Assembly: GCA_000092065.1 (NCBI GenBank)
Contig: CP000583.1
Direction: 5' to 3' (one strand)
Length of the DNA stretch: 64,000 bases
Origin: Ostreococcus lucimarinus
Taxonomy: Eukaryota
The notes below the pieces were generated by a model. It did not search any database. It had not been told where the DNA came from and saw nothing but the letters and a program-made list of their open reading frames with translations. Below, in pieces: positions 1,991-48,912 of this stretch; positions within the stretch are counted from its first letter, which is position 1, and each line of letters starts with the position of its first letter. A program made the position numbers and the translations under genes.

Positions 1991-2273
1991 CGCGGCGACG
2001 CGCGCGCGACGTCCTCGCGGCGCGCGCGCGTCGACGGCGCGCGACGCGTCGATGTGGCGTCACTTCGCGGCATGCGCGCGGTGCTCGCGCACGCGCGCGA
2101 CGCGACGCGCGCGCGGCGCGACGTCGCCGCGCACGTGCACGTGCGGGTGCGTCGCCGCGATCGACGCGCGGACGCGCGCGCCGGACGCGCGACGCGCGCG
2201 ACGCGAGAGTGACTGACGACGCGACGGCTCGGCGTCGGCGCAGGATTCGACGACGACCGGCGCGGGGGCGCTC

Positions 2274-3260
2274 GTGGTCGACGCGCTCGTCGATGGACAC
2301 GCGCGGGACGTTCGCGCGGGCGACGCGGCGTCGCGAGCGGTCGTGCGCGCGCGATGGACGCGAGGGCGGGCGCGCGGGACGCCGACGGCGGATGTGGACT
2401 TGGCGGCGACGCGAGGCGAACGCGCGATGACGGATGCGATTCTAGCCGTCGTCGAGCGCGAACGGACGGTGGTGACGACGCGAGACGCGACGCGGGACGC
2501 GACGGCGACGACGACGGGGCGCGGGCGGCGGAGCGGGGCGTTCGGGTACAAGCCGGACGCGGAGGCGAACGCGACGGTGGTTTTGGACTGCGCGAGCAAG
2601 ATACGACGCGCGTACGGCGAAAAGGCGCTGATTCGCGTCGTGCGCGCGCTGCGGCGACACAGAAACGTGTGCTTGGTGGTGACTTTGGGGGTCGGGACGG
2701 CGACGGCGCGCGAGACGTGCGAGGCGGAGGCGTCGTGCGTGGCGACGTGCGAGCCGGCGGAGGGCGACGACGACGGGTCGCGGGCTCGTTTAGACGTAGA
2801 AATCAGACGCGCGTGCGGACGGCGGCGTCGCGAGCGCGAGCGCGTGATCATTAGAGACGACGATTCTCTCGAGTTCGCGCCGTGCGAGGCGGAATCCGTG
2901 GAAGATGCGGTGGCGCGCGCGCTGCGCGTCGGCGACGACGACGCCGAGACGCGCGCCGCGAGGCGTCTCCAAGCCGTCGTCCCGTTCAATCTCGGCGTCA
3001 GTCTCACCGCGGAAGAGCGCGAGGCCAAGCGCAACGTGAAGCTCTCCTACGAGCACCAAGGCGTGCGCGGCGTCGAGGCGTACGACACGGGTGATTTTTT
3101 AGCCTACCTCCCGCCCGACGCCGGCGGCCGCGGCGTCGCCCTCGGCGTCGCCAAGCCCGGTCGCGGTCACATCTATTACGAGCGCGACGCCGCGGACGAA
3201 GACTTAGACGACGACGATCTTCACGTCGACACCGACGACGAGCTCGAGGAGGATTATTAA
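2274..3260 (+). CDS. Hypothetical protein with acidic C-terminus; start uncertain because the N-terminal part lies in a CpG tract
   Basis: The ORF track C-terminal half is non-low-complexity (VVLDCASKIRRAYGEKALIRVV...GHIYYERDAADEDLDDDDL). I recognise no family. Confidence 0.3.
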   Translation: MVDALVDGHARDVRAGDAASRAVVRARWTRGRARGTPTADVDLAATRGERAMTDAILAVVERERTVVTTRDATRDATATTTGRGRRSGAFGYKPDAEANATVVLDCASKIRRAYGEKALIRVVRALRRHRNVCLVVTLGVGTATARETCEAEASCVATCEPAEGDDDGSRARLDVEIRRACGRRRRERERVIIRDDDSLEFAPCEAESVEDAVARALRVGDDDAETRAARRLQAVVPFNLGVSLTAEEREAKRNVKLSYEHQGVRGVEAYDTGDFLAYLPPDAGGRGVALGVAKPGRGHIYYERDAADEDLDDDDLHVDTDDELEEDY

Positions 3261-3601
3261 CGCACCCGCGCCCTCGTCTCTCGCTCTCGCGCTCCCTTCG
3301 CCCCTCGCGCGCTCGGCGTCCGCTCGGAAAGAGCCCATAACTCGCGAGACGCCACCGTCGTTTCGGCGCGCGGCCGACTTTCGCGAAGTCAAGGCGTCGT
3401 AAATCCCCAGCAAAGGCAGTATGGTAATTTTTGCCCGCGCGCGCGCGCGCGCGTCTTCGACCCCCCCGAACCGCCGAACCGACGCGCGGCGTCGCTCGAC
3501 GACACGAAGCGTCGCGAAGGGTCGACTCGACCCTCGCCGCACACCGCGCCGCGCCGCGCCGGCCCGCGCGCGCGCGAGGGCGACGCGAGACGAAACGCGG
3601 C

Positions 3602-5032
3602 ATGGGCGACGGATCCGACGCCGCGCGCGGTCGCGTCGCGCGCGCGTCGCGCCCCGTCGCGCTGTACGCGCTCGCGTGCGGCGCGCTGACGCTCGCGACG
3701 TCGACGTGCGCGTCCGCGGCGACGCGCGCGGCGGGCGCGCCGCGCGGCGCGGCGTTCGCGCTCGCGCACGCGCTCGCGCTCGGACGACTGAGCGGCGCGC
3801 TCGCCGAGCGATGGCCGCCGACGCCGGCGCTCACGGCGCAGACGCTCGCGGGGACGCTGCTGCGAAACGTCCCGGGCGCGCGCGAAGCGATCGGCGGCGC
3901 GGTGCACCGCGACGCGTCGACGCTGGCGAGAGCGTTCGCGCTGGGATTGATATTGGCGCGCGCGGGGCTGGCGCTGGACGCGGCGACGGCGCGACGACGC
4001 GCGCGGGAGGTGGCGACGCTGGCGACGATTCCGGGGACGCTGGAGATGCTGGCGACGACGGCGCTGGGCGCGGCGTTCTTCGAGCTACCGATCGCGACGG
4101 CGTTCGCGCTGGGATTTTTGATGTGCGGGATATCGCTGGCGGTGGTGATTCCGCCGGCGGTGGCGATGAAGCGGACGGGGCTGGGCGTGGAGGCGGGCGT
4201 GCCGGATCTCGTCGTCGCCGCGAGCTCGTTTGACGGAATTCTGTGCATAGTCGGCTTCGGCGTGTGCGGCGGCGTCGTGGCGGCGTCGGGGGGGGGCGGG
4301 GCGAGCGCGATGGCGTGGAAGGTGCCGACGCAACTCGTCGTCGGCGCGCTCGGGGGAGTCGGCGCGGCGGAGTTCGCGACGAGGTCGGGATTGTTGTCCG
4401 CGCCGGGGAATCGCGCGAGCGCGACGTCGGACGCGTCGATGATTTTGTCCGTGGTTTTGTTGATTTTGTTCGCGGCGAAACGGTTGGAAGTGAACGGCGG
4501 AGGAGCGCTGGCGAGCATCGCGTTTTGCGTCGCCGTCTCGAGCGCGTGGAAATCGCGCGGGATGGAGGACGCGCTCAAGGAAACGACGGCGTTTATGAAC
4601 GCGCTGTGGGCCGAGTTCGCGGCGCCGCTTTTGTTCGTCATCATCGGATGCACGCTCGATTTGCACGCGATGACGGGCGACGTCGCGGCGAAGGCGATCG
4701 GAATCATAGCTCTCGGGGGAATTGTGCGAGCGCTCGGTGTCTTTTTGAGTACGGCTGCGAGCGAGTCGATGAATCTTCGCGAGCGAGCGTTCATCGCTCT
4801 CGCATGGACACCCAAGGCGACGATTCAGGCGGCTTTGGCGAACGTGGTTTACGACCAAGCGGTCACCGCTCATGGCGTCGGCTCGCCCGAGGCGCTCGAT
4901 GGCGAAAAGCTTTTACAAACCGCGCTGTTGTCGATTTTAATCACGGCGCCCTTGGGCGCCTGGTGCATCGCCTACTTCGCCCCGCGGCTTTTGAAGCAAG
5001 AGACGAAGCCCGTCGCCATCGCTGTAGCATAG
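3602..5032 (+). CDS. Cation/proton antiporter (CPA/NhaP-like) multi-pass membrane protein
   Basis: Multiple hydrophobic helices (ALGLILARAGLALD, FALGFLMCGISLAVVIPPAVAMKRTGLGVEAGVPDLVVAASSFDGILCIV). First ATG after the CpG tract is at 3602 (MGDGSD...). Confidence 0.5.
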   Translation: MGDGSDAARGRVARASRPVALYALACGALTLATSTCASAATRAAGAPRGAAFALAHALALGRLSGALAERWPPTPALTAQTLAGTLLRNVPGAREAIGGAVHRDASTLARAFALGLILARAGLALDAATARRRAREVATLATIPGTLEMLATTALGAAFFELPIATAFALGFLMCGISLAVVIPPAVAMKRTGLGVEAGVPDLVVAASSFDGILCIVGFGVCGGVVAASGGGGASAMAWKVPTQLVVGALGGVGAAEFATRSGLLSAPGNRASATSDASMILSVVLLILFAAKRLEVNGGGALASIAFCVAVSSAWKSRGMEDALKETTAFMNALWAEFAAPLLFVIIGCTLDLHAMTGDVAAKAIGIIALGGIVRALGVFLSTAASESMNLRERAFIALAWTPKATIQAALANVVYDQAVTAHGVGSPEALDGEKLLQTALLSILITAPLGAWCIAYFAPRLLKQETKPVAIAVA

Positions 5033-14051: not shown

Positions 14052-14321
14052 CTAGCTCGGCGCGTTCCCTTGCGCCCCCAACATCTGCCCCACGATCGCC
14101 ACGCTCTCCCAGTACTTCGCCGCGCACCGATCCACGCACGAGTTCTCCCCCACGTTCAGTTCGCCGTCCTTGAACTTCTTATCGATGCACTTCTCGTAGC
14201 ACGCGCCCACGAGCTTGTTGAACAGCTCCACGCGGTACTCCATCTCTTGTCCAGCCATGGCGAACGCCGCGTCGCGCTGTTCGGGCGTCATCGTCGGCGC
14301 GCCCTGTCCCGTCTGCGACAT
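14052..14321 (-). CDS. Small Tim (Tim8/Tim13 family) mitochondrial intermembrane-space chaperone
   Basis: Twin CX3C motif (GACYEKCIDK...SCVDRCAAKYWE). ATG at 14321 (MSQTGQG...). The upstream ORF-track extension is in a CpG tract. Confidence 0.8.
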   Translation of the reverse strand: MSQTGQGAPTMTPEQRDAAFAMAGQEMEYRVELFNKLVGACYEKCIDKKFKDGELNVGENSCVDRCAAKYWESVAIVGQMLGAQGNAPS

Positions 14322-14471
14322 CGCGGTTTCTCTCGCCGCTCTCGCGTCGCGTCGTTCGCGTCGCTCGCTCGATCCGGCGTCGTCCGTCGTCCGTCGCGGC
14401 GTCGTCTGGCGGTCGCGCCGCCGCCGCGGCGTCGCGGTGGTTCGTCGCGCGCGCGTCGACCCTCGCGTCAC

Positions 14472-14509
14472 GGTTCGATTTTCGCGATCGAACCTCGACG
14501 CGTCGATCG
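14472..14509. promoter_or_regulatory. Conserved hairpin + palindrome element, copy 1 (Tim13/MFS divergent promoter)
   Basis: GGTTCGATtttcgcgATCGAACC is an 8-bp stem with a 7-nt loop. It is followed by CTCGACGCGTCGATCG, which contains the perfect palindrome TCGACGCGTCGA. A near-identical copy lies at 20088. Confidence 0.5.
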
Positions 14510-14725
14510 CCGCGCGTCGAGCGCGTCGATCGCGCGCGCGACAAAGAGACGCGCTGACTGTTTGCCCACACGCGAGTTCGACGCGCGCGCGAGGGGACCG
14601 ACGCGGCGGCCCGCACTCGACGTCGCGCGCGCGTCGCGGCGACGAGCGCGCGGCGGGAGGCGCGGGAGACGCGTCCGCGAGACGCGCGTCGACGCGGCGA
14701 TTCGATCGACGCGCGCGCGGGCGCG

Positions 14726-16462
14726 ATGGCGAGCGCGCGCGCGGGACTCGGCGGTCGGTCGTTAGGCGGCGACGGCGACGCGCGACGCGCGACGCGCGCG
14801 CGCGCGCGGATGCGCGGCGCGAGGCGCGACGGGAGACGCAGCGCGCGCGTCGAGCGCGCGCGCGCGACGGGAGGGACGCGCGCGCGCGACGGCGCGATGG
14901 GGCGCGCGAGAGGGGGACGCGGGGAGGAGGCGCGAGAACGCGGCGACGTCGCGGCGCGCGCGAGAGCCGAACGACGCGATCGACGGGACGCGGTCGCGGC
15001 GAGCGGGAGCTCGAAGACGACGCGCGAGGATCGGGACGAGGGCGAGGAGGATCCGGACGAGGCGTGGGCGTTTGAGTTTCCGAAGTCGGCGAGCGACGTC
15101 ACGACGCTCTGGCGAGGCGCGCCGAGTCGGTATCGCGTGCTCTTCGTCACGGTGTTCGCGTTCATCGTGTGTAACATGGATAAGGTGAATATTTCGGTGG
15201 CGATCATTCCCATGGCGCGGGAGTTCGGGTGGACGAGCACGCAGGCGGGGTTCGTGCAGAGCGCGTTTTTTTACGGTTTCGCGGCGTCGCAGTTACCGGG
15301 CGGGTACTTGTCGACGAAATTCGGTGGTGCCAAGGTGTTGCCGATCGGGATGTTGATTTTGTCGTTGGCGACGATCGCGATTCCGATCGTCGGCGTGAAC
15401 GAGCAGAGCATTTTCCTGTCGCGCGTGCTCGTGGGTTTGGGCGAAGGCGTGGCGCCGAGCGCGGCGACGGATATCATCGCGAGAAGCGTCAGCGTGGGCG
15501 AGCGTTCGCGCGCCGTCGGGTTCGTGTTCAGTGGGTTCAACATAGGTTCGGTGCTTGGTTTGGGGGTGGCGCCACTATTGATAGAGGCGACGAATTGGAG
15601 GACGGTGTTCGCATTCTTCGGCTCGTGCGGTTTAGTTTGGAGTTTTTGGGCTTGGAAGCTGTACGGCGACGGCGGGATGGTTGACGAAAGTTACAAGGAC
15701 GACGGCGTCACGGGTTTGACGGGTAAGCGCATATTCACCGTCGACGCAAAGGCGATAGCGAGCGGGAAGAGCCCGGCGGAAGACCCTCCGGTGCCGTGGG
15801 GGGAGTTTATATCGAATCCGTCGGTGCGCGCGCTCATGTACGTGCACTTTTGCAACAACTGGGGCTTCTACGTCCTACTCGCTTGGCTTCCGACGTACTT
15901 TACCGACGAGCTCGGGGTGACACTGACGAACGCATCGCTGTTGACTCTGCTTCCGCCGCTCGCGAACGTCGCGATGGCGTCCGTCGCCGGTCCGACTGCG
16001 GACCGCCTCATCGGCAGCGGCATGGAGATCACGAAGGTGCGTAAAACGATGCAAGCAGTCGCCTTCATGGGACCGGCGCTCGCCATGGGCTCGGCCGCAT
16101 TGGTAGATCAGCCGGTGGCGACCGTGGGTCTGCTCACGCTCGGCCTTTCGCTAGGCGCGTTTTCGTACGCGGGTTTGTACTCAAACCATCAAGATTTGTC
16201 GCCCAAGTACGCGAGTATCCTGTTGGGCATGACAAACACGTGCGGCGCGCTTCCGGGCGTCATCGGCGTTCCGTTGACTGGGTACTTGATCAAAGAAACG
16301 GAAAATTGGGAGCTTAGCATGTTCGTTCCGGCGATGTTCTTCTACTTTACGGGAACGCTCGTATTCAGCAAGTACGGCAGCGGCGATCGACAAGCGTTCA
16401 CGGGACAACCTATGCCCGAACCAGGCGAGATTCCGCCATCGTGCGATGGCGGCGGACATTAA
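14726..16462 (+). CDS. MFS anion transporter, SLC17/PHT4-like
   Basis: MFS signature regions (MDKVNISVAIIPMAREFGWTSTQAGFVQSAFFYGFAASQLPGGYLSTKFGGAKVL). 12 predicted TM segments. Arg-rich N-terminus may be a transit peptide or spurious. Confidence 0.7.
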   Translation: MASARAGLGGRSLGGDGDARRATRARARMRGARRDGRRSARVERARATGGTRARDGAMGRARGGRGEEARERGDVAARARAERRDRRDAVAASGSSKTTREDRDEGEEDPDEAWAFEFPKSASDVTTLWRGAPSRYRVLFVTVFAFIVCNMDKVNISVAIIPMAREFGWTSTQAGFVQSAFFYGFAASQLPGGYLSTKFGGAKVLPIGMLILSLATIAIPIVGVNEQSIFLSRVLVGLGEGVAPSAATDIIARSVSVGERSRAVGFVFSGFNIGSVLGLGVAPLLIEATNWRTVFAFFGSCGLVWSFWAWKLYGDGGMVDESYKDDGVTGLTGKRIFTVDAKAIASGKSPAEDPPVPWGEFISNPSVRALMYVHFCNNWGFYVLLAWLPTYFTDELGVTLTNASLLTLLPPLANVAMASVAGPTADRLIGSGMEITKVRKTMQAVAFMGPALAMGSAALVDQPVATVGLLTLGLSLGAFSYAGLYSNHQDLSPKYASILLGMTNTCGALPGVIGVPLTGYLIKETENWELSMFVPAMFFYFTGTLVFSKYGSGDRQAFTGQPMPEPGEIPPSCDGGGH

Positions 16463-18321: not shown

Positions 18322-18360
18322 CTACGCTACGCTACGCTACGCTACGCTACGCTACGCTAC
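18322..18360. repeat. (CTACG)n pentamer microsatellite in a convergent 3' intergenic region
   Basis: ctacg repeated about 8 times, immediately after a TGTAA motif. Confidence 0.9.
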
Positions 18361-19077
18361 AACGTCGCTCGAGTTCGCCGCTCGAGCCTCCTCCGCGACG
18401 GTCAAATCGTACATCTCAAACGCATCTAAAACCACCCCGCTCTCTTCATCCTTGAACACCGTACGATTTCCATTCACCGGCGCATCCCAGACGTTTCTCT
18501 CGAACAAAAGCTCCGGCAACACGTCTCGCCCTCGTCCGCGCAACGCTTCCTCGGCGTCGCATTTCGCCCACATCAACTGCACGCTCGGCCTGCTGTAAAA
18601 CGCCCCCGTCGTCGCCTTGCGCCACGCCTCCGGCACGTCCAACGCATCGCACGCATCCTTAAACGCTCTTCCGTGATCTACGCCCGCCACGCCTGCCACC
18701 GCGTGCGCGAGCTCGTGCCGCACGCACCCGACGACGTTCTCGAACGCCGGGTCCAGCATGACGTACTTGGATAAAAACACGTCTCCGCGTTCGCCTCCGT
18801 CGCGTTCATCGTCGTACAGGTAGGTGATGCCGACGTAACTCTTGCACTTGTGCCAGCCGACGCGAAAGCGCGCGGGATCGAGCTCGGCGCGCGCGATCTC
18901 CAGCGCGCAGAGCTCGTTGGTGAGCGGCCAACGAAGGCTCAAGTCGTAGGACGAGCGCGCCCACGCGCGTTCGATGTCCGCGAGCGAGCGCGCGGCGTCG
19001 GCGACGGTGGCGCGACGCGCGGCGTGTTTGCGCGGCGCGAGCGCGCGCGCGGGTCGAGGCGCGGTGGCGGCGCGCAT
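18352..19077 (-). CDS. SprT-like zinc metalloprotease domain protein
   Basis: HExxH motif (VRHELAHAV) in SprT-like context. ATG 19077. Confidence 0.45.
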   Translation of the reverse strand: MRAATAPRPARALAPRKHAARRATVADAARSLADIERAWARSSYDLSLRWPLTNELCALEIARAELDPARFRVGWHKCKSYVGITYLYDDERDGGERGDVFLSKYVMLDPAFENVVGCVRHELAHAVAGVAGVDHGRAFKDACDALDVPEAWRKATTGAFYSRPSVQLMWAKCDAEEALRGRGRDVLPELLFERNVWDAPVNGNRTVFKDEESGVVLDAFEMYDLTVAEEARAANSSDVVA

Positions 19078-19104
19078 GGCGGCGAGGCGCGCTGTGCGGG
19101 CGCC

Positions 19105-19147
19105 GACGAAGTACGACGAAGTACGACGAAGTACGACAAAGTACGAA
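19105..19147. repeat. (CGAAGTACGA)n 10-mer tandem repeat upstream of the SprT-like gene
   Basis: cgaagtacgacgaagtacgacgaagtacgacaaagtacgaag. Confidence 0.85.
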
Positions 19148-19310
19148 GCCGTTCACGAAAGTGCGCGTCGTGCAGATTACAATAACCTCTCTCCTCTAAG
19201 AAGACGCACGAACGATGCCGTTCGCTCATTGTAACGAGCGATATCGTTCGCGCGCGCGATGCGCGGTGTCGTCGACGACGCAAACGTCTCGCGAGCGAGA
19301 GACGCGTCGC

Positions 19311-19688
19311 CTAGTTGTCGACGATCGTCACCTCAACCTCCACGCCCGGTTCGATGGAGATTGACGTGATTTGCTTCACCACGTCCGCCGGCGAGTGCAA
19401 GTCGATCAAACGCTTGTGGATGCGCATTTGAAAGCGATCCCAAGTGTTCGTACCTTCCCCGCACGGCGACTTGCGCACGGTGAGCTTCAAAACCTTCGTC
19501 GGCATGCGCACCGGGCCCTTCACCTTCAACCGCTTATCCTTCGCCCCGCGAATGAGATCCGCGCACACCTTCTCGAGGTTCTTCACGTTACGAGACGTGA
19601 GCGTGATGCGAATGCGGTGCATCTGCTGCGTCGACTCTTCAGTCTTCGCGGCGGGCGCCTTGTACGGCGCGGCGGCGGCGGCGGACAT
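19311..19688 (-). CDS. RPS20: 40S ribosomal protein S20 (uS10, cytosolic)
   Basis: [10 protein letters not shown]...[75 protein letters not shown] 19688. The longer ORF-track N-terminus is spurious. Confidence 0.9.
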
Positions 19689-20087
19689 CTTCCTGCGCGT
19701 CCAGAAATCGCGTCCTACGTCAGTCATTATTCTCCCACTCGATTCCCATCGCGCGCGCGCCCTTCGTCCCATCGCGCGCGTCGTCGTCGTCCCATCCATC
19801 CATCCGCCCCGCGTTCTAGGGCTTTCGCCCCGATCGCGTCTCGCGCCGCCCCCCCTCGCGCGCGCGTCTCCCGCGTCTCCGCGCGCGTCGTCCTCGTCGT
19901 CGCGTTCGCACCTCTCGCGTTCTCGCGCGTTGGGTCCGAGTCGACGATCCGCTTCGGTGGATCTCGTCACTGAGACTGACGCGCGCGCCGTCGCGCGCGC
20001 GCGCGTCGCGCGCGCGTTGCGAATCACACCGCGCGCGGCGCCGATATCGCGTCGATCGCGCGTCCGTCGCGTCGATCGACGGTCGAG

Positions 20088-20125
20088 GGTTCGATTTTCG
20101 CTATCGAACCTTGACGCGTCGATCG
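20088..20125. promoter_or_regulatory. Conserved hairpin + palindrome element, copy 2 (RPS20/PDH-E2 divergent promoter)
   Basis: GGGTTCGATtttcgctATCGAACCttGACGCGTCGATCG matches the 14472 copy at 35 of 38 positions. Confidence 0.5.
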
Positions 20126-20284
20126 ACGCGTCGATCGCGCGATCGATCGCGCGTCGATCGCGTCGCCGTCGTTATCCAAAACGCCGATCTCGACGACGCG
20201 CGACGCGCGCGACGCGGCACACACCGACGCCGCGCGCCGCGCGACGACGTCGAACGAACGCAGGGCGGAGGAATCACGCGCACG

Positions 20285-21715
20285 ATGGCGTCGACGCACG
20301 CGTGCGCGTCGCGATTGACGGCGAGACGCGCGGGGAGTTTGAATGGTAAGGTTTTGCGGGCGCGCGCGACGGGCGGGGCGCGCGCGCGACGGGCGTGCGA
20401 GGCGAGGGCGGAGATCAAGGAGATCTTCATGCCGGCGCTGTCGTCGACGATGACGGAGGGGAAGATCGTGAGCTGGTTGATGGGCGAGGGGGACGCGATC
20501 GGGAAGGGGGACGCGGTCGTGGTCGTGGAGAGCGACAAGGCGGACATGGACGTGGAGTCGTTCGTGGATGGAATCATCGCGCACATCGCGGTCGGGGACG
20601 GGGAGGTGGCGACCGTGGGAGCGCCGATCGCGTACGTCGTCGATAGCGAGAGCGAGATCGAGGAGGCGAAGGCGAAGGCGGGCGGCGCGCCGGCGCCGGC
20701 GCCGGCCGCGCCGGCGGCCGCGGCGCCCGCGCCGGCGCCGGCGCCGGCGGCGCCCGCGCCGGCGGCGGCGGCGGCGGCGCCTGCACCGGCGGCGCCGGCG
20801 GCGCCGGCCGCGCCGGTGGCTTCCGGTCGCGTCGTCGCGACGCCGTACGCGAAGAAGCTCGCGAAGAAGCACAAGGTTGACCTCAAGACGCTCGCCGGTA
20901 CGGGCTTGAATGGCCGCATCACCGCGGTGGACATCGAGAACGCCGCGGGCTTGCCGCCGACGCCGAAGGCTGGCGCCGCGCCTGCCCCGGCAGCGGCCGC
21001 GGCCGCCGCACCGAAGAAGGCGGCCGCCGTCGCGCCTCCGGCGCCCGCCGGCACCGTCGTGCCGCTCTCGGGCATGCAAGCCGCCGTCGCGAAGAACATG
21101 TTGCCGTCTCTCTCAGTTCCGGTCTCCCGCATCGCGATGAGCATCTGCACCGACGAGTTCGACAAGTTGTACGCCACTCTCAAGCCGAAGGGTGTGACGA
21201 TGACCGCCTTGCTCACCAAGGCTGTCGGCGTCGCGCTCGCGCAGCACCCGATCATGTACTCCACCTACCACGACGGTAAGGGCATCGTGTACAACGACAA
21301 GGTGAACATCGCCGTCGCCGTTGCGCTCGATGATGGTTTGATCACGCCAGTCTTGAACGACACCGCCAACACCGATGTCTACCAACTCGGCCGCGAATGG
21401 AGCGGGCTCGTGAAGAAGGCGCGCAGCACTGGCTTGTCCCCGGCTGACTACGCCGGCGGTAACTTCACCATCTCCAACCTCGGCATGTTCGGCGTCGACC
21501 AATTCGACGCCATTCTCCCACCGAACCAAACCGCGATCCTGGCCGTCGGCTCTTCCAAGAAGACCGTCGTCCCGGTTGGTGGCATGATTGGCGTCAAGAG
21601 CTTCATGACGGTCAACATCGTCGCCGACCACCGTCACGTCAACGGTAACGTCGCGGCTGACTTCGGCAAGACTTTGCGCGAAGTGATCGAAAACCCTAGC
21701 AACCTGACGCTTTAA
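20285..21715 (+). CDS. Dihydrolipoamide acetyltransferase (pyruvate dehydrogenase E2), likely organellar
   Basis: Lipoyl domain (MPALSSTMTEGKIVSWL...VVVVESDKADMDVES). Ala/Pro linker. Catalytic DHRHVNG motif. ATG 20285 (MASTHACASRL..., transit-peptide-like). Confidence 0.9.
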   Translation: MASTHACASRLTARRAGSLNGKVLRARATGGARARRACEARAEIKEIFMPALSSTMTEGKIVSWLMGEGDAIGKGDAVVVVESDKADMDVESFVDGIIAHIAVGDGEVATVGAPIAYVVDSESEIEEAKAKAGGAPAPAPAAPAAAAPAPAPAPAAPAPAAAAAAPAPAAPAAPAAPVASGRVVATPYAKKLAKKHKVDLKTLAGTGLNGRITAVDIENAAGLPPTPKAGAAPAPAAAAAAAPKKAAAVAPPAPAGTVVPLSGMQAAVAKNMLPSLSVPVSRIAMSICTDEFDKLYATLKPKGVTMTALLTKAVGVALAQHPIMYSTYHDGKGIVYNDKVNIAVAVALDDGLITPVLNDTANTDVYQLGREWSGLVKKARSTGLSPADYAGGNFTISNLGMFGVDQFDAILPPNQTAILAVGSSKKTVVPVGGMIGVKSFMTVNIVADHRHVNGNVAADFGKTLREVIENPSNLTL

Positions 21716-23993: not shown

Positions 23994-24449
23994 GAGCGCG
24001 CTCGCGGAGATCTGGTCGTCGAAAGTCGCGCTCGGTCAGCGCCTCGTCGTCGCCTCGTCGGCGCGCGTCCGCGCGTCGCGCGCGCGCGCCTCGACGCGTC
24101 GCGCCGCGGGGCGTCGCGGAGGGCGTCGCGTCGCGCGCGCCGTCGCACCTCGTCGCCGGACGCCGCGCCGGGCGCCATCGCGCGTCGTCGTCTGTCGCGC
24201 GCGTTTCGCGACGCACTGCGCGACGCGCGTCGGGCATGGAGCCGCGCGCGCGCGGCGCGGCGGCGCGGCGGGGGAAGGCCAAGGTGCGCCGCGACGAGAC
24301 GCGCGACGCGCGACGCGCGACGCGCGCGACGAGGGCGCGCGCGACTGATTTCGATTTGATTCGCGACGCAACAGCTCGACGCATTTCGCGCGCGGGAACG
24401 CGGCGACGCGCGCGCGGACGCGTCGAACGATGGACGACGGACGATTGAC

Positions 24450-26165
24450 TTGGCGCGCGCGACGCGCGACGGCGCGCGCGACGCGCGAAGCTCGAGCGAC
24501 GGCGCGGTGGACGCGACGACGACGGCGACGGCGACGACGGCGGCGGCGGCGGCGCGCGCGACGGACGACGCGAGCGAAGACGCGAGCGAAGACGCGCGGG
24601 ATGAGTTCGAGGAAATGCGAGGGGTGCTCGAGCGCGCGCGAGCGGAGGCGCGTCGGGCGCGAGAGGAGACGGCGATGGTGAAGGCGGAGCTCGCGGTGCT
24701 GAGGCGGAGCGCGAAGGAGGCGAAAATGTCGGCGGACGCGGCGAAGGGCGCGGCGGACGAAGCGAGCGGGAGTCGAGCGGTGTTGGAGGCGCGCGCGGTG
24801 GAGGCGGAAGAGGCGCGAGAGAGAGCGGAGAAGGCGCTCGATGCGGCGGAGACGGAGGCGAGGGAGGCGCGACTCGCGCTGGACGCGGCGCTCGCCGAGT
24901 CGGAGGAAGCGAGAGCGGCGCGGGCGGACGTAGAACGACGATTAGAGGTCGCCACCGCGCGAGCGACGGACGAGGAGCGAGAAAAGTCACGTTTCGATGA
25001 AATTATTCGCGAACGCGACGCGGCGCTGCGCGCGAGCGAGACCGCGAACGCGAGATCGCGAAGTTTAGAATCCGCGTTGGCGGAGTCGCGCGAGGAGCAG
25101 CTTCGCGCCGAGGAGGAAGCTATGCAGCTTCGGCGAGATTTAGACGAGAGCCGCGAGGAGCGACGACGCGCTCGCAGTGACGGCGCAATTTCGGCCGTGA
25201 ACGACGACGGGACGAGCGCGGGCGACGTGGACCGGCGAAGGGGGCAATTTGTCGCCGACGAGGACATCGCGGCGCAGCAGGAGGAAAAGTACGCCTTGCT
25301 CGCCGAGTTACAAACGGAACGTCGCCGTCGCATCGAAGTCGAGGCCGAGCTCGAGGACGTGATTAACACGCAAAATGATATGAATGCGCGCGCGGAAACC
25401 GCATCGCGCATCGCCGCGGTGGCGGAAGGCGAGGCGGACGATTACCGCGCGCGCGTATCGGAGACGGAAAAGGCGACGAGGGCGGCGAAACGTTCGGCGA
25501 CGGCGTTCGAGAGCCGCGCGGTGAAGGCGGAGAGCGCCATCGCTGCCGTCAAGCTCGTTATCGGCGAATCCGAAGACGCGAAGCACAGCGACGACGAGCT
25601 GCACCTCCGCGTCCGAGCGTACGTCGATCGCAAGACGCGGCGGGCGGACGCCGCGCTCGCCGACGCCCTGGAAGAGGCCCAACTTTTGCGCTCAAAGGCG
25701 AAACAGATGGGTGAATCCCGCGTCACCGACGCCGCGAGCGTCGACGACCGCGTGCTCAAACTCGCGGAAGTTCGCGACAAGCTCGTGGAAGAGATGAACG
25801 CCCAATCCGCCGAACTCGAACGCGCCGACGCCGAGATCGAGACCCGCGCCGACGCCGTCGCCGCCGCGCGCGACGAAATCACCGACCTCGAGCTCAAGCT
25901 CGCCTCTTCCAACGCTCAAAACGCGCGTCTGATCGAAATCATCGAGGAACAGGGCCGATGGTCCGCCGCCGAGCCGTCCTCGAGCGTCTCCGCGTCCTCC
26001 GCGGCGCGCGCCGCCGTCTCCGCCCCCGTCACCCCCGTCAAATTCGCGCCTCGTCGCGCCGACGTTCGCCGTCGAGACCTCGCCGCCGACGTCCTCGGCG
26101 ATCGCAAGGCGCTTCTCGCTCGCATCGAGGCGCGCTTGCTCGAGATTCACGCGCTCCAACGTTAA
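24450..26165 (+). CDS. Charged coiled-coil protein (E/R/A-rich); start unresolved
   Basis: Long heptad-like E/R/A/L-rich sequence without low-complexity collapse. No ATG at the ORF start. Confidence 0.35.
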   Translation: MARATRDGARDARSSSDGAVDATTTATATTAAAAARATDDASEDASEDARDEFEEMRGVLERARAEARRAREETAMVKAELAVLRRSAKEAKMSADAAKGAADEASGSRAVLEARAVEAEEARERAEKALDAAETEAREARLALDAALAESEEARAARADVERRLEVATARATDEEREKSRFDEIIRERDAALRASETANARSRSLESALAESREEQLRAEEEAMQLRRDLDESREERRRARSDGAISAVNDDGTSAGDVDRRRGQFVADEDIAAQQEEKYALLAELQTERRRRIEVEAELEDVINTQNDMNARAETASRIAAVAEGEADDYRARVSETEKATRAAKRSATAFESRAVKAESAIAAVKLVIGESEDAKHSDDELHLRVRAYVDRKTRRADAALADALEEAQLLRSKAKQMGESRVTDAASVDDRVLKLAEVRDKLVEEMNAQSAELERADAEIETRADAVAAARDEITDLELKLASSNAQNARLIEIIEEQGRWSAAEPSSSVSASSAARAAVSAPVTPVKFAPRRADVRRRDLAADVLGDRKALLARIEARLLEIHALQR

Positions 26166-30000: not shown

Positions 30001-32540
30001 TAAATTTGTGCGCGCTCGACGTCGACACGACAGTGTCTATGACAGTACGACAGTAACTGTAATGGCGATTCATCATCGTCGCCATCGTCGTTGGCATCCA
30101 TGTACAAACCAGTCGCGCGCGCGCACAACGGATGATACGCGATGTAGCAACCCGGATGACAGCATTGGATTTTCGCGCCCATGCGTTGCTTACAGACCGT
30201 GCACAAGAGCGACCAGCGTTCTTTTTGAATGTTTGCGATGTTATCGATGGGCTCCATGCGCTCGATATCAAGCACGGTGGTCTCGGGTATCCATTGGCAG
30301 CACGCGCTGTGCGCCCAGAGCGAAGGAATCGTCGTCGGTTTGAGCGCACCGCCGGCGACGGGACACAAACAACACAAGGGTGTTTCGCTCACTGCACCAC
30401 CGGTGTGCTCGCACGAACGACACAGCCAACCGACGGTGTCGTCTGGTATGTCTGGAACACCGTAGCAAGACTGATGCACCGTCACCGCGCACGCCTCGCA
30501 CGTGATGAGCTGGTCAAAGTCGAAGTCGCGCTCATCGTCGCACACCGCACACCGATCGACGCTCCAACTCACTTGCACGATTTCGTAATCCAGCGAAGCA
30601 TTTTCATCGTCCTCGGTATGTTGATCCCTACGAGCGTTGAAATCATTGCCGTCCAAGAAACGTCCTATGGGCATCTTTGCCGGCTCAATCATTCTCAAAG
30701 ACGCCTTCCACTTTTTCGCTTGCCCCATGCCAGCGTGCTTTTCGAACTCAGTCGGCGTCATGTACTTGTTCGTTCCTGCGCAATCCGAGCATTGACACAT
30801 CACTTGATTCAAGCGCGTGTAATAGTCTGCGGCCACGCCGTTACAAATCACCGCAAGTGTCTCTGGCAACTCGTTCCCGTCGCGAAGCTTGGAAATATCA
30901 CCCGCCTTGGAGCGACGCGACGCCTTGCTCGCATCGGGGTTTCGTTCCGTCTTCACCCTCGCTGCGTGCGCGTCTGGGTTCAAGATTTTATCGTAACGCT
31001 TTCGCTGCTGGTCGTCGAGCTCGCCGCTCTCAAACATCTCCGTGATCATCTCTCTAAATCGCTCCGCCTCATCTCTGGCGAGCTCCTCGTATCTCTCGCG
31101 CTCTGACGCGTCAATCTCGCGCCACGCCGCACCCTGCTCGCGATAGACCGCGGCGAAATCTATGTTATCTTCGCCGTTTTCGTCTTTGTACTGTTGGAAG
31201 AAATCCGCGGCGAAGAGCTGCCACGAACTCTTCGGTCGTTTGGGCACGGTGTTTTGCTTCTTCGACACTGCGTGCGGCGATTTCATCGTCCCCGCTCGCA
31301 CCGAGGCTGAGGAAGAACCCTTTAGGAGTTTATCCAGCGTTGGCATGCGCCTCAGCAGCATTTTAGCCTCTTTCATCTCCTTTGAAGGTCGACCGACTCG
31401 AGGTTTGCTGAGAAGTTTTTCCAAGCGCTTGCGCTCTCGAATCTGCGCCTTGCGTTCAGCCTCGACGCGCGCTTGCTCCGCGAGTCTCGCCTCCGCGGCG
31501 ATCTGCTCGGGAGTTTTACTTCTACACACCGGACACGCGTACGGAATATCCTCATCCTCACCGTTTTGTTCTCTATCCAACACCTCCGCCGCCACGGCGT
31601 CGCATTCGCGATGAATCCACATCTCGCATCGATCGCACCCCACCATGGCGTCGCCCGCGCTCCAGTGCCACACTCGATCGCACACCGGACAGAACTGACC
31701 CTCTTTGTGCAACTTTCTGCACAGCGCGCAGAGCCCATTCGAGTTTTTCGATCGCAACGACTCGTCATCCGTCACGCCGCACGACGCGCACCGACGCGTC
31801 GCCAGCCGCTCCGCCGGCGCGCTGCACGGCAACCCGAACGAGTCCTGTAATCCCAGCACCCCCACCTCGTCTTCGCGCTCGCCCTCGCGCGAGCCATCGT
31901 CGCCGTCGAGCCCCTTCCCGTCCCCCCCCCGATCGTCGGCTCTCCCTTCGCTCTCCGTCGCCCCGACGTCGTCCTCGTCCGCCGCCGCCGCCTCGCGCGC
32001 CTCCTCGCACGCCTCCTCGAACGCCCTCGGTCGCATTCGCTTCGCCACGCGCTGCGCGTCCAACCCTCGTCGCACCCCTCGCGCCCACGCCATCAACCCC
32101 TCCGCGGGCGCCCAGCAATAATCCCTCTCCCGCCCCCGCGTCCCGCTCGGCCCGTAAAACATCACGCAGCAGCACGCCGCCGCGAAATCCCTCCGCACCG
32201 CCTCCGGCGCTCGCCCCACGTCCACGATCACGCCCGGCCACATCGGTTCCCGTCCTCGCGCGCCGACGCCTCGCGCGAACACGACGTCTCCCGCGACGTA
32301 CGACGCGAGCGGCGCCGGCGAATCGTCCGCGTCGTCCGTCGCCCCCCTCGTCGGTCGCGCGCGCGTCGCGCGTCCATCGTCGCCGTCGTCGCCGTCCGTC
32401 CGCGCCGTCGACGTCGACGGCATCGCGACGCGCGCGCCGCCCGCGACGGGCGCGCCCGGGAGCATCGCGCGACGCGACGCGTCGCGAACGCGCGCGCGGC
32501 GCGGCGCGGCCGCGCAATGCGCCGACGTATGAAAACCCAT
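27075..32540 (-). CDS. Trithorax-like histone-lysine N-methyltransferase with PWWP, PHD/ePHD fingers, HMG box, CW-type zinc finger, three SAND-like modules and C-terminal SET + post-SET
   Basis: SET/post-SET at the C-terminus (NHSCNPNMYSKIV...GEELTYNYRF...CYCGADNCRGYL). PWWP (GDVVFARG...PMWPGVIV). PHD fingers (CAVCDDERDFDFDQLITCEACAVTVHQSC; CPVCDRVWHW...CDRCEMWIHREC). HMG box (KRPKSSWQLFAADFFQQYK). CW finger (WVQCENPSCGKWRRV...WTC). Three repeats end in FE.HAGM..KKWK.S.R, which is SAND KDWK-like. Poly-Asp tract. The ORF start is non-ATG. The first ATGs are at 32540, 32465 and 32420, so the start is uncertain. Confidence 0.85.
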   Translation of the reverse strand: MGFHTSAHCAAAPRRARVRDASRRAMLPGAPVAGGARVAMPSTSTARTDGDDGDDGRATRARPTRGATDDADDSPAPLASYVAGDVVFARGVGARGREPMWPGVIVDVGRAPEAVRRDFAAACCCVMFYGPSGTRGRERDYCWAPAEGLMAWARGVRRGLDAQRVAKRMRPRAFEEACEEAREAAAADEDDVGATESEGRADDRGGDGKGLDGDDGSREGEREDEVGVLGLQDSFGLPCSAPAERLATRRCASCGVTDDESLRSKNSNGLCALCRKLHKEGQFCPVCDRVWHWSAGDAMVGCDRCEMWIHRECDAVAAEVLDREQNGEDEDIPYACPVCRSKTPEQIAAEARLAEQARVEAERKAQIRERKRLEKLLSKPRVGRPSKEMKEAKMLLRRMPTLDKLLKGSSSASVRAGTMKSPHAVSKKQNTVPKRPKSSWQLFAADFFQQYKDENGEDNIDFAAVYREQGAAWREIDASERERYEELARDEAERFREMITEMFESGELDDQQRKRYDKILNPDAHAARVKTERNPDASKASRRSKAGDISKLRDGNELPETLAVICNGVAADYYTRLNQVMCQCSDCAGTNKYMTPTEFEKHAGMGQAKKWKASLRMIEPAKMPIGRFLDGNDFNARRDQHTEDDENASLDYEIVQVSWSVDRCAVCDDERDFDFDQLITCEACAVTVHQSCYGVPDIPDDTVGWLCRSCEHTGGAVSETPLCCLCPVAGGALKPTTIPSLWAHSACCQWIPETTVLDIERMEPIDNIANIQKERWSLLCTVCKQRMGAKIQCCHPGCYIAYHPLCARATGLYMDANDDGDDDESPLQLLSYCHRHCRVDVERAQIYAGTEGLKIGQEGRLLECGANKERKRTKAEMRAETEERERREASATLADEPELSSDSETDFMNCAKFRRYEQLGHPRTEADIKDENEENPDAPGSGTKKYRVRKRVLHADDEDENDDDDDDEDDDDDDDMTERADTDMVHTKDDVIAHQRVDTMETTEDLLQDDDDDDDAELSTDLDVEYDADPTDDDDDDNAEGGKTDAEDAVEDADAKLDPSTTFPESKRRKTVSERSESSPQSATLALQAKLPEAKYPALPGGLPVPEGNVPRPDIPEVNIYCKTFRGIFRPADTLIKCLCGRCRREAEATNSDATTLWEANRWEQHAGMKHTKKWKTSIRVVVDDNGGEQAFGDWLTDHNIVVLANTGKTAKVASMSAKPKAQRPKASRTHALLGLGLGTFEDDKLEDKSGEETRARALVGRRVQIDTGTILAPDWKDGTMIDVTITRTGIRYKVIFDDGTDLMISFTRDAQNLKFVDGEAPDLSFLPEAAKLSSGKNTQLETQLAIANAQFTSAKRPSNPADRAKIAELGRPKKPREKEAWVQCENPSCGKWRRVPQSFAEKLSADDADMWTCQKNPEAAFSVCSVPQEFEDDEIDRRIALGDNAPYMEGSDDEESEDEDAVRTHVPDDLPAMVSVVCKGVSGTYHVQTRRIECLCRACVDSDQGPVYHERSRFEAHIGVKGPKKWSHHIRVVLNNRTVMSLGKWLEVWGCEIRREKTVDLSAKSLGHQRNLSRKQLEEIQANVYKRLGLNKNDKNAKVTGPPPKTGKRLYVGLTPYIVRGSRGAFKRELIASKKYTPEEFAAVQAERKARGVNGASDDKVVEQHGLTMREKLEQMTASYSDRLTFAKSNIHGWGLVAKVFHKAGSIVTQFKGETCRSTVADLRETFYEDNGVDCYLLKQDDDTVVDCTFQGNFARFTNHSCNPNMYSKIVKVDDANHIIFFARTDVRPGEELTYNYRFESEDGKVPCYCGADNCRGYLC
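29380..29700 (-). repeat. GAC/GTC trinucleotide-rich tract encoding poly-Asp/acidic stretches in the SET protein
   Basis: Long gtcgtcgtc runs on the plus strand, translated as DDDDDDD.../EDENDDDDDDEDDDDDDD on the minus strand. Confidence 0.8.
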
Positions 32541-33153
32541 CCGAGATCGCGCGCGTGTTTCGGGGCACGAAACACCCGCGCGCGGCGAGAGATTCGATCG
32601 CGCGATCGCCACGTGCCGCGCCGACGGCCGCGCGACGCGCGATCGCGCACACCGCGCTTTTCGAACGCGCAATACGTCGATCTCGGCGAACTTCGCGAAA
32701 TTCGCGCCGCGCGAAAAAAAAAGAAGCGCCGATCCGCAAAGACGGAAAAGATTTTCTCGCGCGCGCGATCGGATCTCGAACGCGGGGGATTCGCGCGATC
32801 GACGACGTGAGGTTCGCGCGCGATCGATGATCGCCGACTCCAGGGTCGCGCGATCGCGCGATCGATCGATCGCGCGCGCGTGCCGCGCGCGGCCGACCGC
32901 GCGCGCGCGGCCTTTCGGAACCCGCGGGCGCGCGCGCGGGAGACGACGACGCGCGAGGCGCGCGGGCGAGCGCGAGCGCGGGCGCGAGCGCGCGCGGGGG
33001 GGTTCGGTGCGAAAAAATTCGCGCGCGGCGACGTCGAGGCGCGGGCGCGGAGACGCGGTCGGCGACGGCGCGAGGGCGGTGGCGATTCATCCATCCATCG
33101 CGCCATCGAGCCATCGAGCCATCCATCGCGGCGCGGCGGGCGAGACGGGGGGC

Positions 33154-34059
33154 ATGGGCGTGGTGTCGCGACATCGATCGACGCGCGCGCAGGCGGTGAA
33201 CGGGATGCGCGATAACGGCCTGCCGCGGAGCGACAGCGCGATGACGCTGCGGAACGCGCAGAAGGGGTCGGAGACGAGCGCGCGCGCGACGCGGGGCAAG
33301 TCGCCATCGCGCGCGGCCGGAGATCGCGGTGATCCGTGTGTGACGGACGCGAACCGGGTCGCGGCGACGGCGGCGACGCGCGGGGACGGGACGGAGACGC
33401 CGCTGGGGGGGGAGGACGAAGACGAGGACATGCTCGGGGAGGAGACGCCGTCCGCGAGGGAGCTGGTGCCGGATCGACGGTGGTACACGCTGGTGAAGAT
33501 TCACGACGACGGGTGCACGGTGGCGGTGTCGGACGCGGAGCTGGCGATGCTGGAGGCGAGCATTTTGAAGGAAAACGTGGGGGGAGGGGCGAACGCGTGG
33601 ACGCGACCGTCGTCGATGCGACCGTGCTCGAGCGAGGAAGATGGTTCGGGCGGACGATGGGCGCCGGACGACGCGGAGGAGTACGAGGAGTGCGGGGCGA
33701 GCGGACGCGGCGGGGACTCGATGTCGGCGTGGGAGGACTCGGAAGTCAGCAGACTGCCGAGCGCGGCGCCGGGCGTGGCTGGGCACACCAAACCGGGCGG
33801 TCCGTGTGATCACTGCGGTGCGTTGGACTCGCCGCAGTGGCGCCGAGGACCGGCGAGCAAGCCGATGCTGTGCAACGCGTGCGGCACCCGATACCGCAGA
33901 ACGAACAACCTGGGACCGTCGCCGTCGAGCCGCATGGCGACGCCGGAGAAACGCAAGGCGACTGCGGTACAACAAAACGACACCCCGCGTGGGAAAAAGA
34001 ACGCGCGCTGCGGTGCTATCGGTGAAAAATTTTCCCGAGCAAATGCGATGGTTTACTAA
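33154..34059 (+). CDS. GATA-type zinc finger transcription factor
   Basis: C-terminal CDHCGALDSPQWRRGPASKPMLCNACGTRYRR is a GATA finger. Start is uncertain: ATG 33154 or upstream ATG 32827 within the CpG tract. Confidence 0.6.
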   Translation: MGVVSRHRSTRAQAVNGMRDNGLPRSDSAMTLRNAQKGSETSARATRGKSPSRAAGDRGDPCVTDANRVAATAATRGDGTETPLGGEDEDEDMLGEETPSARELVPDRRWYTLVKIHDDGCTVAVSDAELAMLEASILKENVGGGANAWTRPSSMRPCSSEEDGSGGRWAPDDAEEYEECGASGRGGDSMSAWEDSEVSRLPSAAPGVAGHTKPGGPCDHCGALDSPQWRRGPASKPMLCNACGTRYRRTNNLGPSPSSRMATPEKRKATAVQQNDTPRGKKNARCGAIGEKFSRANAMVY

Positions 34060-37160: not shown

Positions 37161-37250
37161 CCCTCGTCCCTCGTCCCTCGTCCCTCGCGCGCGATCGACG
37201 CGCGCGATCGACGCGCGCGATCGACGCGCGCGATCGACGCTCGCGCGCGT
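37161..37250. repeat. (CCCTCGT)x3-4 followed by a (CGCGCGATCGACGCG) 15-mer x4 in the TBC/hypothetical-gene divergent promoter
   Basis: ccctcgtccctcgtccctcgtccctcgcgcgcgatcgacgcgcgcgatcgacgcgcgcgatcgacgcgcgcgatcgacgc. Confidence 0.85.
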
Positions 37251-37559
37251 CCGTCTCGCGCGTCTCGCGCGCGCGCGTCTCGCGCGTCCCGCGCGTCGAC
37301 CGAACGAATCGACGCGTCCGTCTCTCGGACGTCTCGGACGCGACGATCCGTCTCGGACGCGGAGACGCGCGACGCAGCGACGGCGCGCGCACACCGCGAC
37401 GCACGCGCGACGGCGAACGACGACGAACGACGTCCGCGACGCGCGCGCGCGAGACGGCGAACGACGACGCGCGCGAGACGGCGAAAAAAGGCGCGACGCA
37501 TCGCGAGACGACGGCGAACGACGGTTTGAGTTCTCGGAGGCGAACGAGCGACGCGCGCG

Positions 37560-48420: not shown

Positions 48421-48912
48421 CGCGCGATCCGCGCGCGCCGTCCTCTGTCGCCGCGCCGCCGCGCGCGCCACCGCGCGCCGCGCGCGCGCGCCCGTAACAA
48501 AACACACGGACCGCGAACCGCCGCGCCGTACACCCGCGCCCTCGCATCGTATGCGCAAACAGTCACGCGTCGACGCGTGTGCTCGACATAAATCGTTCCC
48601 CCGTCCGCATACGCATACGGACGCGCGCGAGCGGTATCATCGGCGTCGAAGGTTCGCGCCGTCGCGCGAAGGTTCGCGCGGCGTCGGCGCCGAACGCGCG
48701 ACGCGCGCGGGTCAACGCGCCGCACACGTCGACGACACCGCGCGTCGACGCGACCGCGAGGAAGCGTCGAAGCGCGAGGAAACGCGACTCGCGAGACGCG
48801 CGCGACCGGCGAGAGACGCGCGCGACGACGCACGGCGCGAGAATCGCGGGATCTGCGGCGCGATTGGCGATCGAATCGGATCGAATCTCGAGCGACGACG
48901 CACGGCGCGACG

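Follow-up and report, generated by a model that had tools for sequence, protein, structure and literature searches.

Two neighbouring promoters within a 64-kb stretch of nuclear DNA from the marine green picoalga Ostreococcus lucimarinus (the window, that is, the whole 64,000 nucleotides analysed here) share a 38-bp element consisting of a hairpin and a CG-rich tail. With moderate confidence, we interpret the shared sequence as a short paralogous tract that arose when non-allelic (ectopic) gene conversion took place between two quasi-palindromic, CpG-rich promoter cores. The comparisons of haplotypes and related species presented below do not appear to support a sequence-specific function.

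A 38-bp element shared by two divergent promoters

Both copies of the element are located on the plus strand, at 14472-14509 (GGTTCGATTTTCGCGATCGAACCTCGACGCGTCGATCG) and 20088-20125 (GGTTCGATTTTCGCTATCGAACCTTGACGCGTCGATCG), where the initial annotation had placed them; they are separated by 5.6 kb and have the same orientation. They match at 36 of 38 positions, with two mismatches, rather than at 35 as previously counted. In the contigs in which copy 2 carries the G allele in its loop (L003, L004, L005 and L029), the two copies have the same 23-nt hairpin, and the match over the 38-mer rises to 37/38. The earlier description of a hairpin followed by a palindrome is correct for copy 1, in which the 12-nt palindrome TCGACGCGTCGA is perfect, and fails for copy 2, in which the corresponding site is the imperfect TTGACGCGTCGA. 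The coordinates of the elements and of the flanking genes are presented in Table 1.

Table 1 Features of the two divergent promoters in the window
Feature	Description	Position	Strand
Tim10-family gene	small Tim protein, 89 aa; left gene of pair 1	14052..14321	-
Second inverted repeat	degenerate GGTTCG-N12-CGACCC, just upstream of copy 1	14439..14462	.
Copy 1 hairpin	inverted repeat GGTTCGAT (14472-14479), loop TTTCGCG, ATCGAACC (14487-14494); with the tail, the shared 38-bp element and probable gene-conversion tract	14472..14494	.
Copy 1 tail	CG-rich; perfect palindrome TCGACGCGTCGA + TCG	14495..14509	.
MFS_1 transporter ORF	578 aa from the first ATG; right gene of pair 1	14726..16462	+
RPS20	ribosomal protein S20 (uS10), 125 aa; left gene of pair 2	19311..19688	-
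Quasi-palindrome	95 nt, centred on copy 2; 44-nt arms, 82% complementary	20052..20146	.
Copy 2 hairpin	GGTTCGAT / TTTCGCT / ATCGAACC; loop T/G polymorphic between strains	20088..20110	.
Copy 2 tail	CG-rich TTGACGCGTCGATCG, imperfect palindrome; perfect TCGACGCGTCGA next at 20123-20134	20111..20125	.
PDH-E2 ORF	2-oxoacid dehydrogenase E2; lipoyl, E3-binding and catalytic domains; right gene of pair 2	20285..21715	+

A first question is whether such a match could be expected by chance in DNA of this composition. None of 100 dinucleotide shuffles equalled the 38-mer pair, and across 36 pairs of divergent intergenic regions from the 64-kb window, the best 38-nt ungapped match reached 28 positions at the median and never more than 30, compared with 36 here. 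A chance origin of the shared 38-mer is therefore excluded, as the initial annotation had held. Because the background match level is high, the CG-rich half, TCGACGCGTCGATCG, is ordinary in this genome; judged from its sequence, the unusual part is the GGTTCGAT-N7-ATCGAACC hairpin, and this exact inverted repeat occurs only at these two sites in the 64 kb.

The promoter background of the window has to be considered as well. The whole window has a GC content of 62.5% and a CpG observed/expected ratio of 1.69, and all nine of its divergent intergenic regions have a GC content of 0.65-0.86, a CpG ratio of 1.9-2.3 and perfect stems of 7-11 bp. For at least six of the nine, the sequence can be aligned to its own reverse complement, and CGCGTCGA and CGTCGATCG words are clustered in several of them. 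Hairpin potential is thus generic in these CpG-rich, stem-bearing and often self-complementary promoters, and only two properties appear to be distinctive here, namely, the non-CG composition of the hairpin and its duplication.

Other repeats were observed in the same kinds of regions. One divergent promoter contains the inverted repeat CGCGTCGA-N9-TCGACGCG at 37292-37316, with a purine-skew switch nearby at 37354, and a 13-nt unit, CGCGCGATCGACG, repeated four times in tandem at 37185-37240. The divergent intergenic region 48421-48912 holds a perfect 16-nt palindrome, CACGCGTCGACGCGTG, at 48564-48579, direct repeats of AAGGTTCGCGC at 48649 and 48669, 20 nt apart (48649-48681), and AGGTTCGCG, which the sister haplotype group described below also carries as an arm of copy 2. 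Tandem repeats of CGACGAAGTA (10 nt, ~4-5 copies) and CTACG (~8 copies) are present between the gene at 18352-19077 and RPS20; the repeat positions recorded near RPS20 are 19104-19153 and 18322-18360. In the 2-kb blocks 2001-4000, 24001-26000 and 32001-34000, the GC content reaches 0.70-0.74 and long ORFs are GC-high at codon position 2, which could reflect either low-complexity Ala/Arg/Gly-rich proteins or mis-called frames.

Each copy lies between head-to-head genes, Tim10/MFS and RPS20/PDH-E2, in agreement with the initial annotation, in which the small Tim protein was called Tim13; the name given by the sources is TIM10. Public collections contain the exact Tim10-family protein and two neighbouring proteins, and among the members of their clusters are O. 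lucimarinus XP_001416863 and an Ostreococcus sp. 'lucimarinus' transcript. The Tim10 protein is represented by 912 blocks in the contig collection, and all loci retrieved were from marine metagenome assemblies. The distance from the element to the start codon is 151 nt for Tim10 (14321), 217 nt for MFS (14726) and 160 nt for PDH-E2 (20285), all within the 150-250 bp originally proposed, while RPS20, at 400 nt (19688), falls outside that range. Head-to-head pairs are commonplace in Ostreococcus, given the 2288 bidirectional transcript pairs reported for O. tauri (PMC4035068).

In each intergenic region, the cumulative purine excess drops on the left side and climbs on the right, which is consistent with purine-rich sense strands of two divergent leaders. 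Between these slopes lies a flat zone, from ~14497 to 14572 in the first region, with copy 1 at its edge, and from ~19964 to 20240 in the second, with copy 2 inside it. This arrangement suggests that the element is upstream of both transcription start sites.

The 400-nt distance to the RPS20 start codon would be explained by a suspected 5'-UTR intron at ~19697-19917 on the minus strand, with AG|GTGCGA near 19917, a branch-like ACTGAC and, immediately before the ATG at 19688, CAG|G. Within this probable intron, at 19816-19825, there is a telo-box-like word, CTAGGGCTTT, which is kept in the sister haplotype group and in species B (TTTAGGGCTTAC) and is inverted in species C (AAAGCCCTAG); it is reminiscent of the telo-boxes carried by plant ribosomal-protein genes. 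A block of ~95 nt upstream of RPS20 (19905-20000, core 19946-19963) is identical in the two haplotype groups, is recognisable in two further Ostreococcus species as GAGTCGA..ATCC...GGATC.GTCACTGA and contains a TTCG-loop hairpin, GATCCGC-TTCG-GTGGATC. Its probable identity is the 5' exon of RPS20 or the region in which RPS20 transcription starts. This block is conserved far better than the 38-mer, so real constraint is detectable in these regions, but outside the element.

Haplotype comparisons and probable short-tract gene conversion

Approximately ten further contigs of the window lineage (T1) carry both copies of the element. Three singleton variants were found among them, each in one contig, namely, GGTTCAAT (L002), ATCGAACT (L005) and ATCGACCC (L001); two are single-sided stem breaks and one is a wobble, and none of the three is compensated. 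Among T1 strains, variable sites have a density of 0.08 in copy 1 versus 0.11 outside it and 0.16 in copy 2 versus 0.04 outside, the latter value for the element being inflated partly by one indel-bearing mosaic contig. Within T1, divergent intergenic regions differ by 1-3%, compared with 0% at 4-fold synonymous sites.

A sister haplotype group, T2, is represented by contigs L024, L026 and L027, and contigs L025 and L029 are mosaics. T1 and T2 differ at 0.083-0.094 of 4-fold sites (~9%) in two flanking genes. For SHMT, the 4-fold difference is 0.065 with respect to L026 and only 0.009 with respect to L024, a contrast that we take as a sign of mosaicism. In L029, the left part of the second intergenic region is T2-like and the right part T1-like. 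Such mosaic contigs may represent either recombining groups or chimeric assemblies.

Over the whole intergenic regions, the identity between T1 and T2 is 78% (first region) and 81-87% (second region); a difference of 13-22% against ~9% at 4-fold sites indicates that the intergenic regions outpace synonymous sites. The element is no exception: T1 and T2 are 79% identical in copy 1 and 75-85% identical in copy 2. By these estimates, its divergence equals or exceeds that of its flanks and is greater than that of synonymous sites, and CpG-rich divergent promoter regions seem to be mutation hot spots.

These data raise a key question: are the two copies alike because they are constrained, or because they share a recent history? 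Copy 1 of T1 matches copy 2 of T1 at 36-37 of 38 positions and its own ortholog, copy 1 of T2, at only 30 of 38; the corresponding values are 34/40 for copy 1 of T1 versus copy 2 of T2 and 33/40 for the two T2 copies compared with each other. Positions 27 and 32-35 of T1 copy 1 are in the copy-2 state, and the copy-2 states fall in TCGACGCGTCGATCG, which corresponds to TCGCCGCGCGGGTCG in the T2 ortholog. The TT/CG and T/G differences distinguish the lineages, yet are common to both paralogs within each lineage. Because T1 copy 1 is nearer to copy 2 than to its own ortholog, we infer short-tract gene conversion, the direction of which would rest on few informative sites and the timing likewise on a handful. 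The near-identity of the stem arms, from which a function had originally been deduced, is no evidence of function, since the copies share recent ancestry.

The similarity is confined to the core. Outside ~60 nt, the two intergenic regions resemble each other no more than unrelated CpG-rich promoters do, and their full alignment scores 96 bits, ~35 of which come from the core, compared with 62 bits for the best unrelated pair. Extended paralogy of the whole promoters was rejected, as the similarity beyond the core equals the background of unrelated CpG-rich intergenic regions.

The following sequence of events would account for these observations. Older, related quasi-palindromes (inverted repeats) may have pre-existed in both promoter cores, and in T1, the Tim10/MFS promoter would have received a copy of ~30-40 bp of the RPS20/PDH-E2 promoter, a transfer possibly seeded by CGCGTCGATCG-type words that occur in the two promoters. 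The palindromic form itself could be made and renewed by slippage and template switching in quasi-palindromes, a kind of mutation presumably typical of self-complementary, CpG-rich, low-complexity DNA. No sequence-specific function would be required for these steps; the element probably lies in the untranscribed core between divergent start regions, where it might at most give generic aid to an open, symmetric promoter.

Two observations in T2 do not sit easily with gene conversion as the whole explanation. The inverted repeat is kept at both loci with the same outer arms (9 + 9 nt), CGAGGTTCG ... CGAACCTCG, and in T1 and T2 alike, GGTTCG and CGAACC are separated by 11 nt (13 nt in one variant), while the inner 11 nt differ. 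T2 copy 1 reads GGTTCGGTCGTCGCGAGCGAACC; T2 copy 2 reads GGTTCGCGATCGTCGCGCGAACC in L024 and L027, with a perfect 8-bp stem (12 bp in L027) and a 7-nt loop, and GGTTCGCGATCGTCGCTAGCGAACC in L026. When stem pairs were counted on ungapped 23-mers of seven hairpin variants, pairs 1-6 were invariant between T1 and T2, pairs 7 and 8 of T2 copy 2 (L024, L027) carried compensated two-sided changes (A-T to C-G and T-A to G-C), and pair 7 of T2 copy 1 showed a double change to G-G. The compensated pairs look like the result of selection for symmetry, and templated quasi-palindrome correction could also yield them. In addition, the second repeat upstream of copy 1, degenerate in the window, is intact in T2 (GGTTCG-N13-CGAACC). 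A local function at the DNA level is possible because the outer arms and their spacing are kept in T2.

In more distant Ostreococcus species, the synteny of both divergent gene pairs is conserved in L007/L008 and L009. The hairpin is absent in L007/L008, L034, L032 and L031, the last of which is AT-rich with a different intergenic make-up, and it was not seen in the short upstream stretches covered in L010, L033 and L035. At the orthologous Tim10/MFS site of L009 (9844-9931), GGTTCGG and CCGAACC arms surround a largely AT-rich spacer of 74-76 nt, which may be either an insertion into the hairpin loop or an ancestral state later shortened by deletion. The same site contains GGTTCGGTCGTC, identical to T2 copy 1 at 12 of 12 positions, which makes it probable that copy 1 is in its ancestral state in T2.

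Searches for further copies and rival readings

Another important question is whether the element recurs beyond these two promoters. No further copy was found in the other divergent intergenic regions of the window. In JGI metagenomes, the exact 21-nt core was recovered three times from the Tim10/MFS locus, twice from the RPS20/PDH-E2 locus and once from an unrelated contig, with no third Ostreococcus locus at a genome coverage of only ~2-3 fold. Since the known loci were recovered 2-3 times each, the scan would probably have detected any third exact copy in this genome (~0.9 by a rough Poisson estimate); the scans covered the exact core, and diverged copies would be missed. A pattern with W before the hairpin, made to exclude both known contexts, gave no matches in the JGI metagenomes, and in viral contigs, GGTTCGAT-N7-ATCGAACC retrieved eight unrelated chance hairpins with other loops and contexts. 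Within the window, inverted repeats with at most one mismatch are unenriched (11 observed versus 7.6 expected), and the half-sites GGTTCG, AGGTTCG and GGTTCGCG show no promoter enrichment and are spread through coding DNA, the one suggestive case being the AAGGTTCGCGC direct-repeat pair. No information on the motif is present in Monnier et al. 2010. A recurrent promoter motif is therefore not borne out in the window or in the core scan. Nor is the element a dispersed repeat indifferent to promoters, the outcome that had been named as fatal to the original proposal, as only two loci were found in the same searches.

Apart from gene conversion acting alone, the element may be a lineage-specific DNA cis-element, in which inverted CGAGGTTCG half-sites 11 bp apart would be recognised by a dimeric factor in the middle of each bidirectional promoter; the sequence between them would be unconstrained, and conversion would merely have homogenised two functional sites. 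We regard this as possible but unlikely. The retention of arms and spacing at both loci in T1 and T2 while the spacer diverged, the compensated pairs 7 and 8 of T2 copy 2, the position in the non-skewed centre of both promoters and the second tandem inverted repeat intact in T2 all point towards it. Against these stand the restriction to two loci whose four flanking genes are functionally unrelated, the lack of half-site enrichment in the other promoters of the window, the absence from the orthologous promoters of the other Ostreococcus species examined and the singleton SNPs that fall in the arms. Moreover, with 36 unchanged arm positions at a 4-fold rate of 0.09, the post-hoc probability is only ~0.03. 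In a narrower form, CGAGGTTCG-N11-CGAACCTCG would be a young, lineage-specific, symmetric protein-binding or cruciform element, an insulator-like or ETC-like organiser of the promoter core that was selected as symmetric and spread by conversion, which seems rather improbable. It is very doubtful that the element is an ETC ('extra TFIIIC') site proper, with GGTTCGA on each strand acting as a B-box and TFIIIC forming a boundary that separates divergent Pol II genes, as it does in yeast and human. The B-box consensus is GGTTCGANTCC, and divergent intergenic regions are preferred locations of ETC sites (PMC3395662). Each strand of the T1 element does begin with GGTTCGAT, which contains the GGTTCGA core, and both copies lie between divergently transcribed Pol II genes, a weak argument given how commonplace such pairs are. 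However, T1 matches the B-box at 8/10 positions (forward GGTTCGATTTT, reverse GGTTCGATCGC), with the 3' CC missing or half matched, and the T2 copies match at 6-7/10, having lost the A at position 7 (GGTTCGG, GGTTCGC). The element is also without the 3' TCC and the 10-nt ETC extension (PMC3395662), so membership in the B-box/ETC class was rejected. ARAGORN found no tRNA gene in the window or in the 14 loci fetched and scanned that could calibrate a local B-box.

A structured RNA, either the 5'-leader hairpin proposed in the initial annotation or a small hairpin RNA from the 95-nt palindrome, is highly unlikely. The 8-bp stem with its 7-nt loop would suit such a role, as would the 95-nt quasi-palindrome at copy 2, whose single-strand DNA fold of -46 kcal/mol is far better than that of shuffles (z = -7.3), and there are sub-threshold matches to generic miRNA-precursor models. 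Yet the fold of copy 1 with 40-nt flanks is unexceptional (z = -0.9), and shuffled sequences fold as well as the 38-mers on their own (z = -0.8 and -1.3). Rfam revealed no family at the gathering score in the whole window, and in relaxed scans of both intergenic regions, the best match, a generic miRNA hairpin model, reached 37 bits versus the 268 required. The element lies in the flat purine-skew zone, outside the skewed flanks that probably mark transcripts, its stem-breaking SNPs are uncompensated, and a palindrome that is identical on both strands suits DNA as well. The leader interpretation is thus not supported. We likewise give very little credence to a foldback or MITE-like remnant with terminal inverted repeats GGTTCG(G)/(C)CGAACC that entered both promoters by independent insertions. 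The same arms around a long, largely AT-rich spacer at the orthologous site of L009 would fit a mobile element, but no target-site duplication was found at any copy (T1, T2 or L009), no other copies were found in the 64-kb window or the metagenome exact-core scan, and the viral-contig pattern gave unrelated chance hairpins only.

Resemblances to cell-cycle motifs were also considered. The MluI cell-cycle box, ACGCGT, is present inside the flanking palindrome and is uninformative because it occurs 57 times in the window. The E2F-type consensus is TTTSSCGC, and loop plus stem read TTTCGCGA, a 7/8 match; this candidate was rejected, since TTTCGCGA is found in T1 only and the T2 copies read GTCGTCGCG and ATCGTCG, so that the TTTCGCG string is absent from both of them.

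Implications and relation to known systems

If ectopic gene conversion is the correct explanation, the shared 38-mer would be an ordinary by-product of CpG-rich, self-complementary promoter DNA that mutates and recombines, and it would serve as a caution that near-identity of hairpin arms in recent paralogs is uninformative on selection. For genome evolution in Mamiellales, the two promoters compared would offer an example of CpG-rich DNA that diverges faster than 4-fold synonymous sites and of a 30-40 bp tract apparently converted across 5.6 kb. Should the tract instead contain a symmetric binding site spread by conversion, it would bear on the origin and movement of cis-elements in compact eukaryotic genomes; if that element were also young, it would be a small-scale example of the propagation of a new cis-element in one of the smallest eukaryotic genomes.

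Among known systems, the closest likeness may be to the concerted evolution of short non-coding repeats, in which linked copies are more alike within a lineage than to their orthologs and the tract is short (tens of bp) and lies inside shared microhomology. The difference is that the tract here is very short and is located in promoter cores rather than in duplicated genes. The element can also be compared with the quasi-palindromes, or cruciform-prone inverted repeats, of CpG-island-like bidirectional promoters; self-complementary CGCG, TCGA, ACGCGT and CGATCG words give abundant stems of 7-11 bp in all the divergent intergenic regions of the window, and the element is placed at the centre of promoter symmetry. 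Unlike them, its hairpin is formed by GGTTCGAT and ATCGAACC around a T-rich loop, and it stands out because it is not built from CG repeats.
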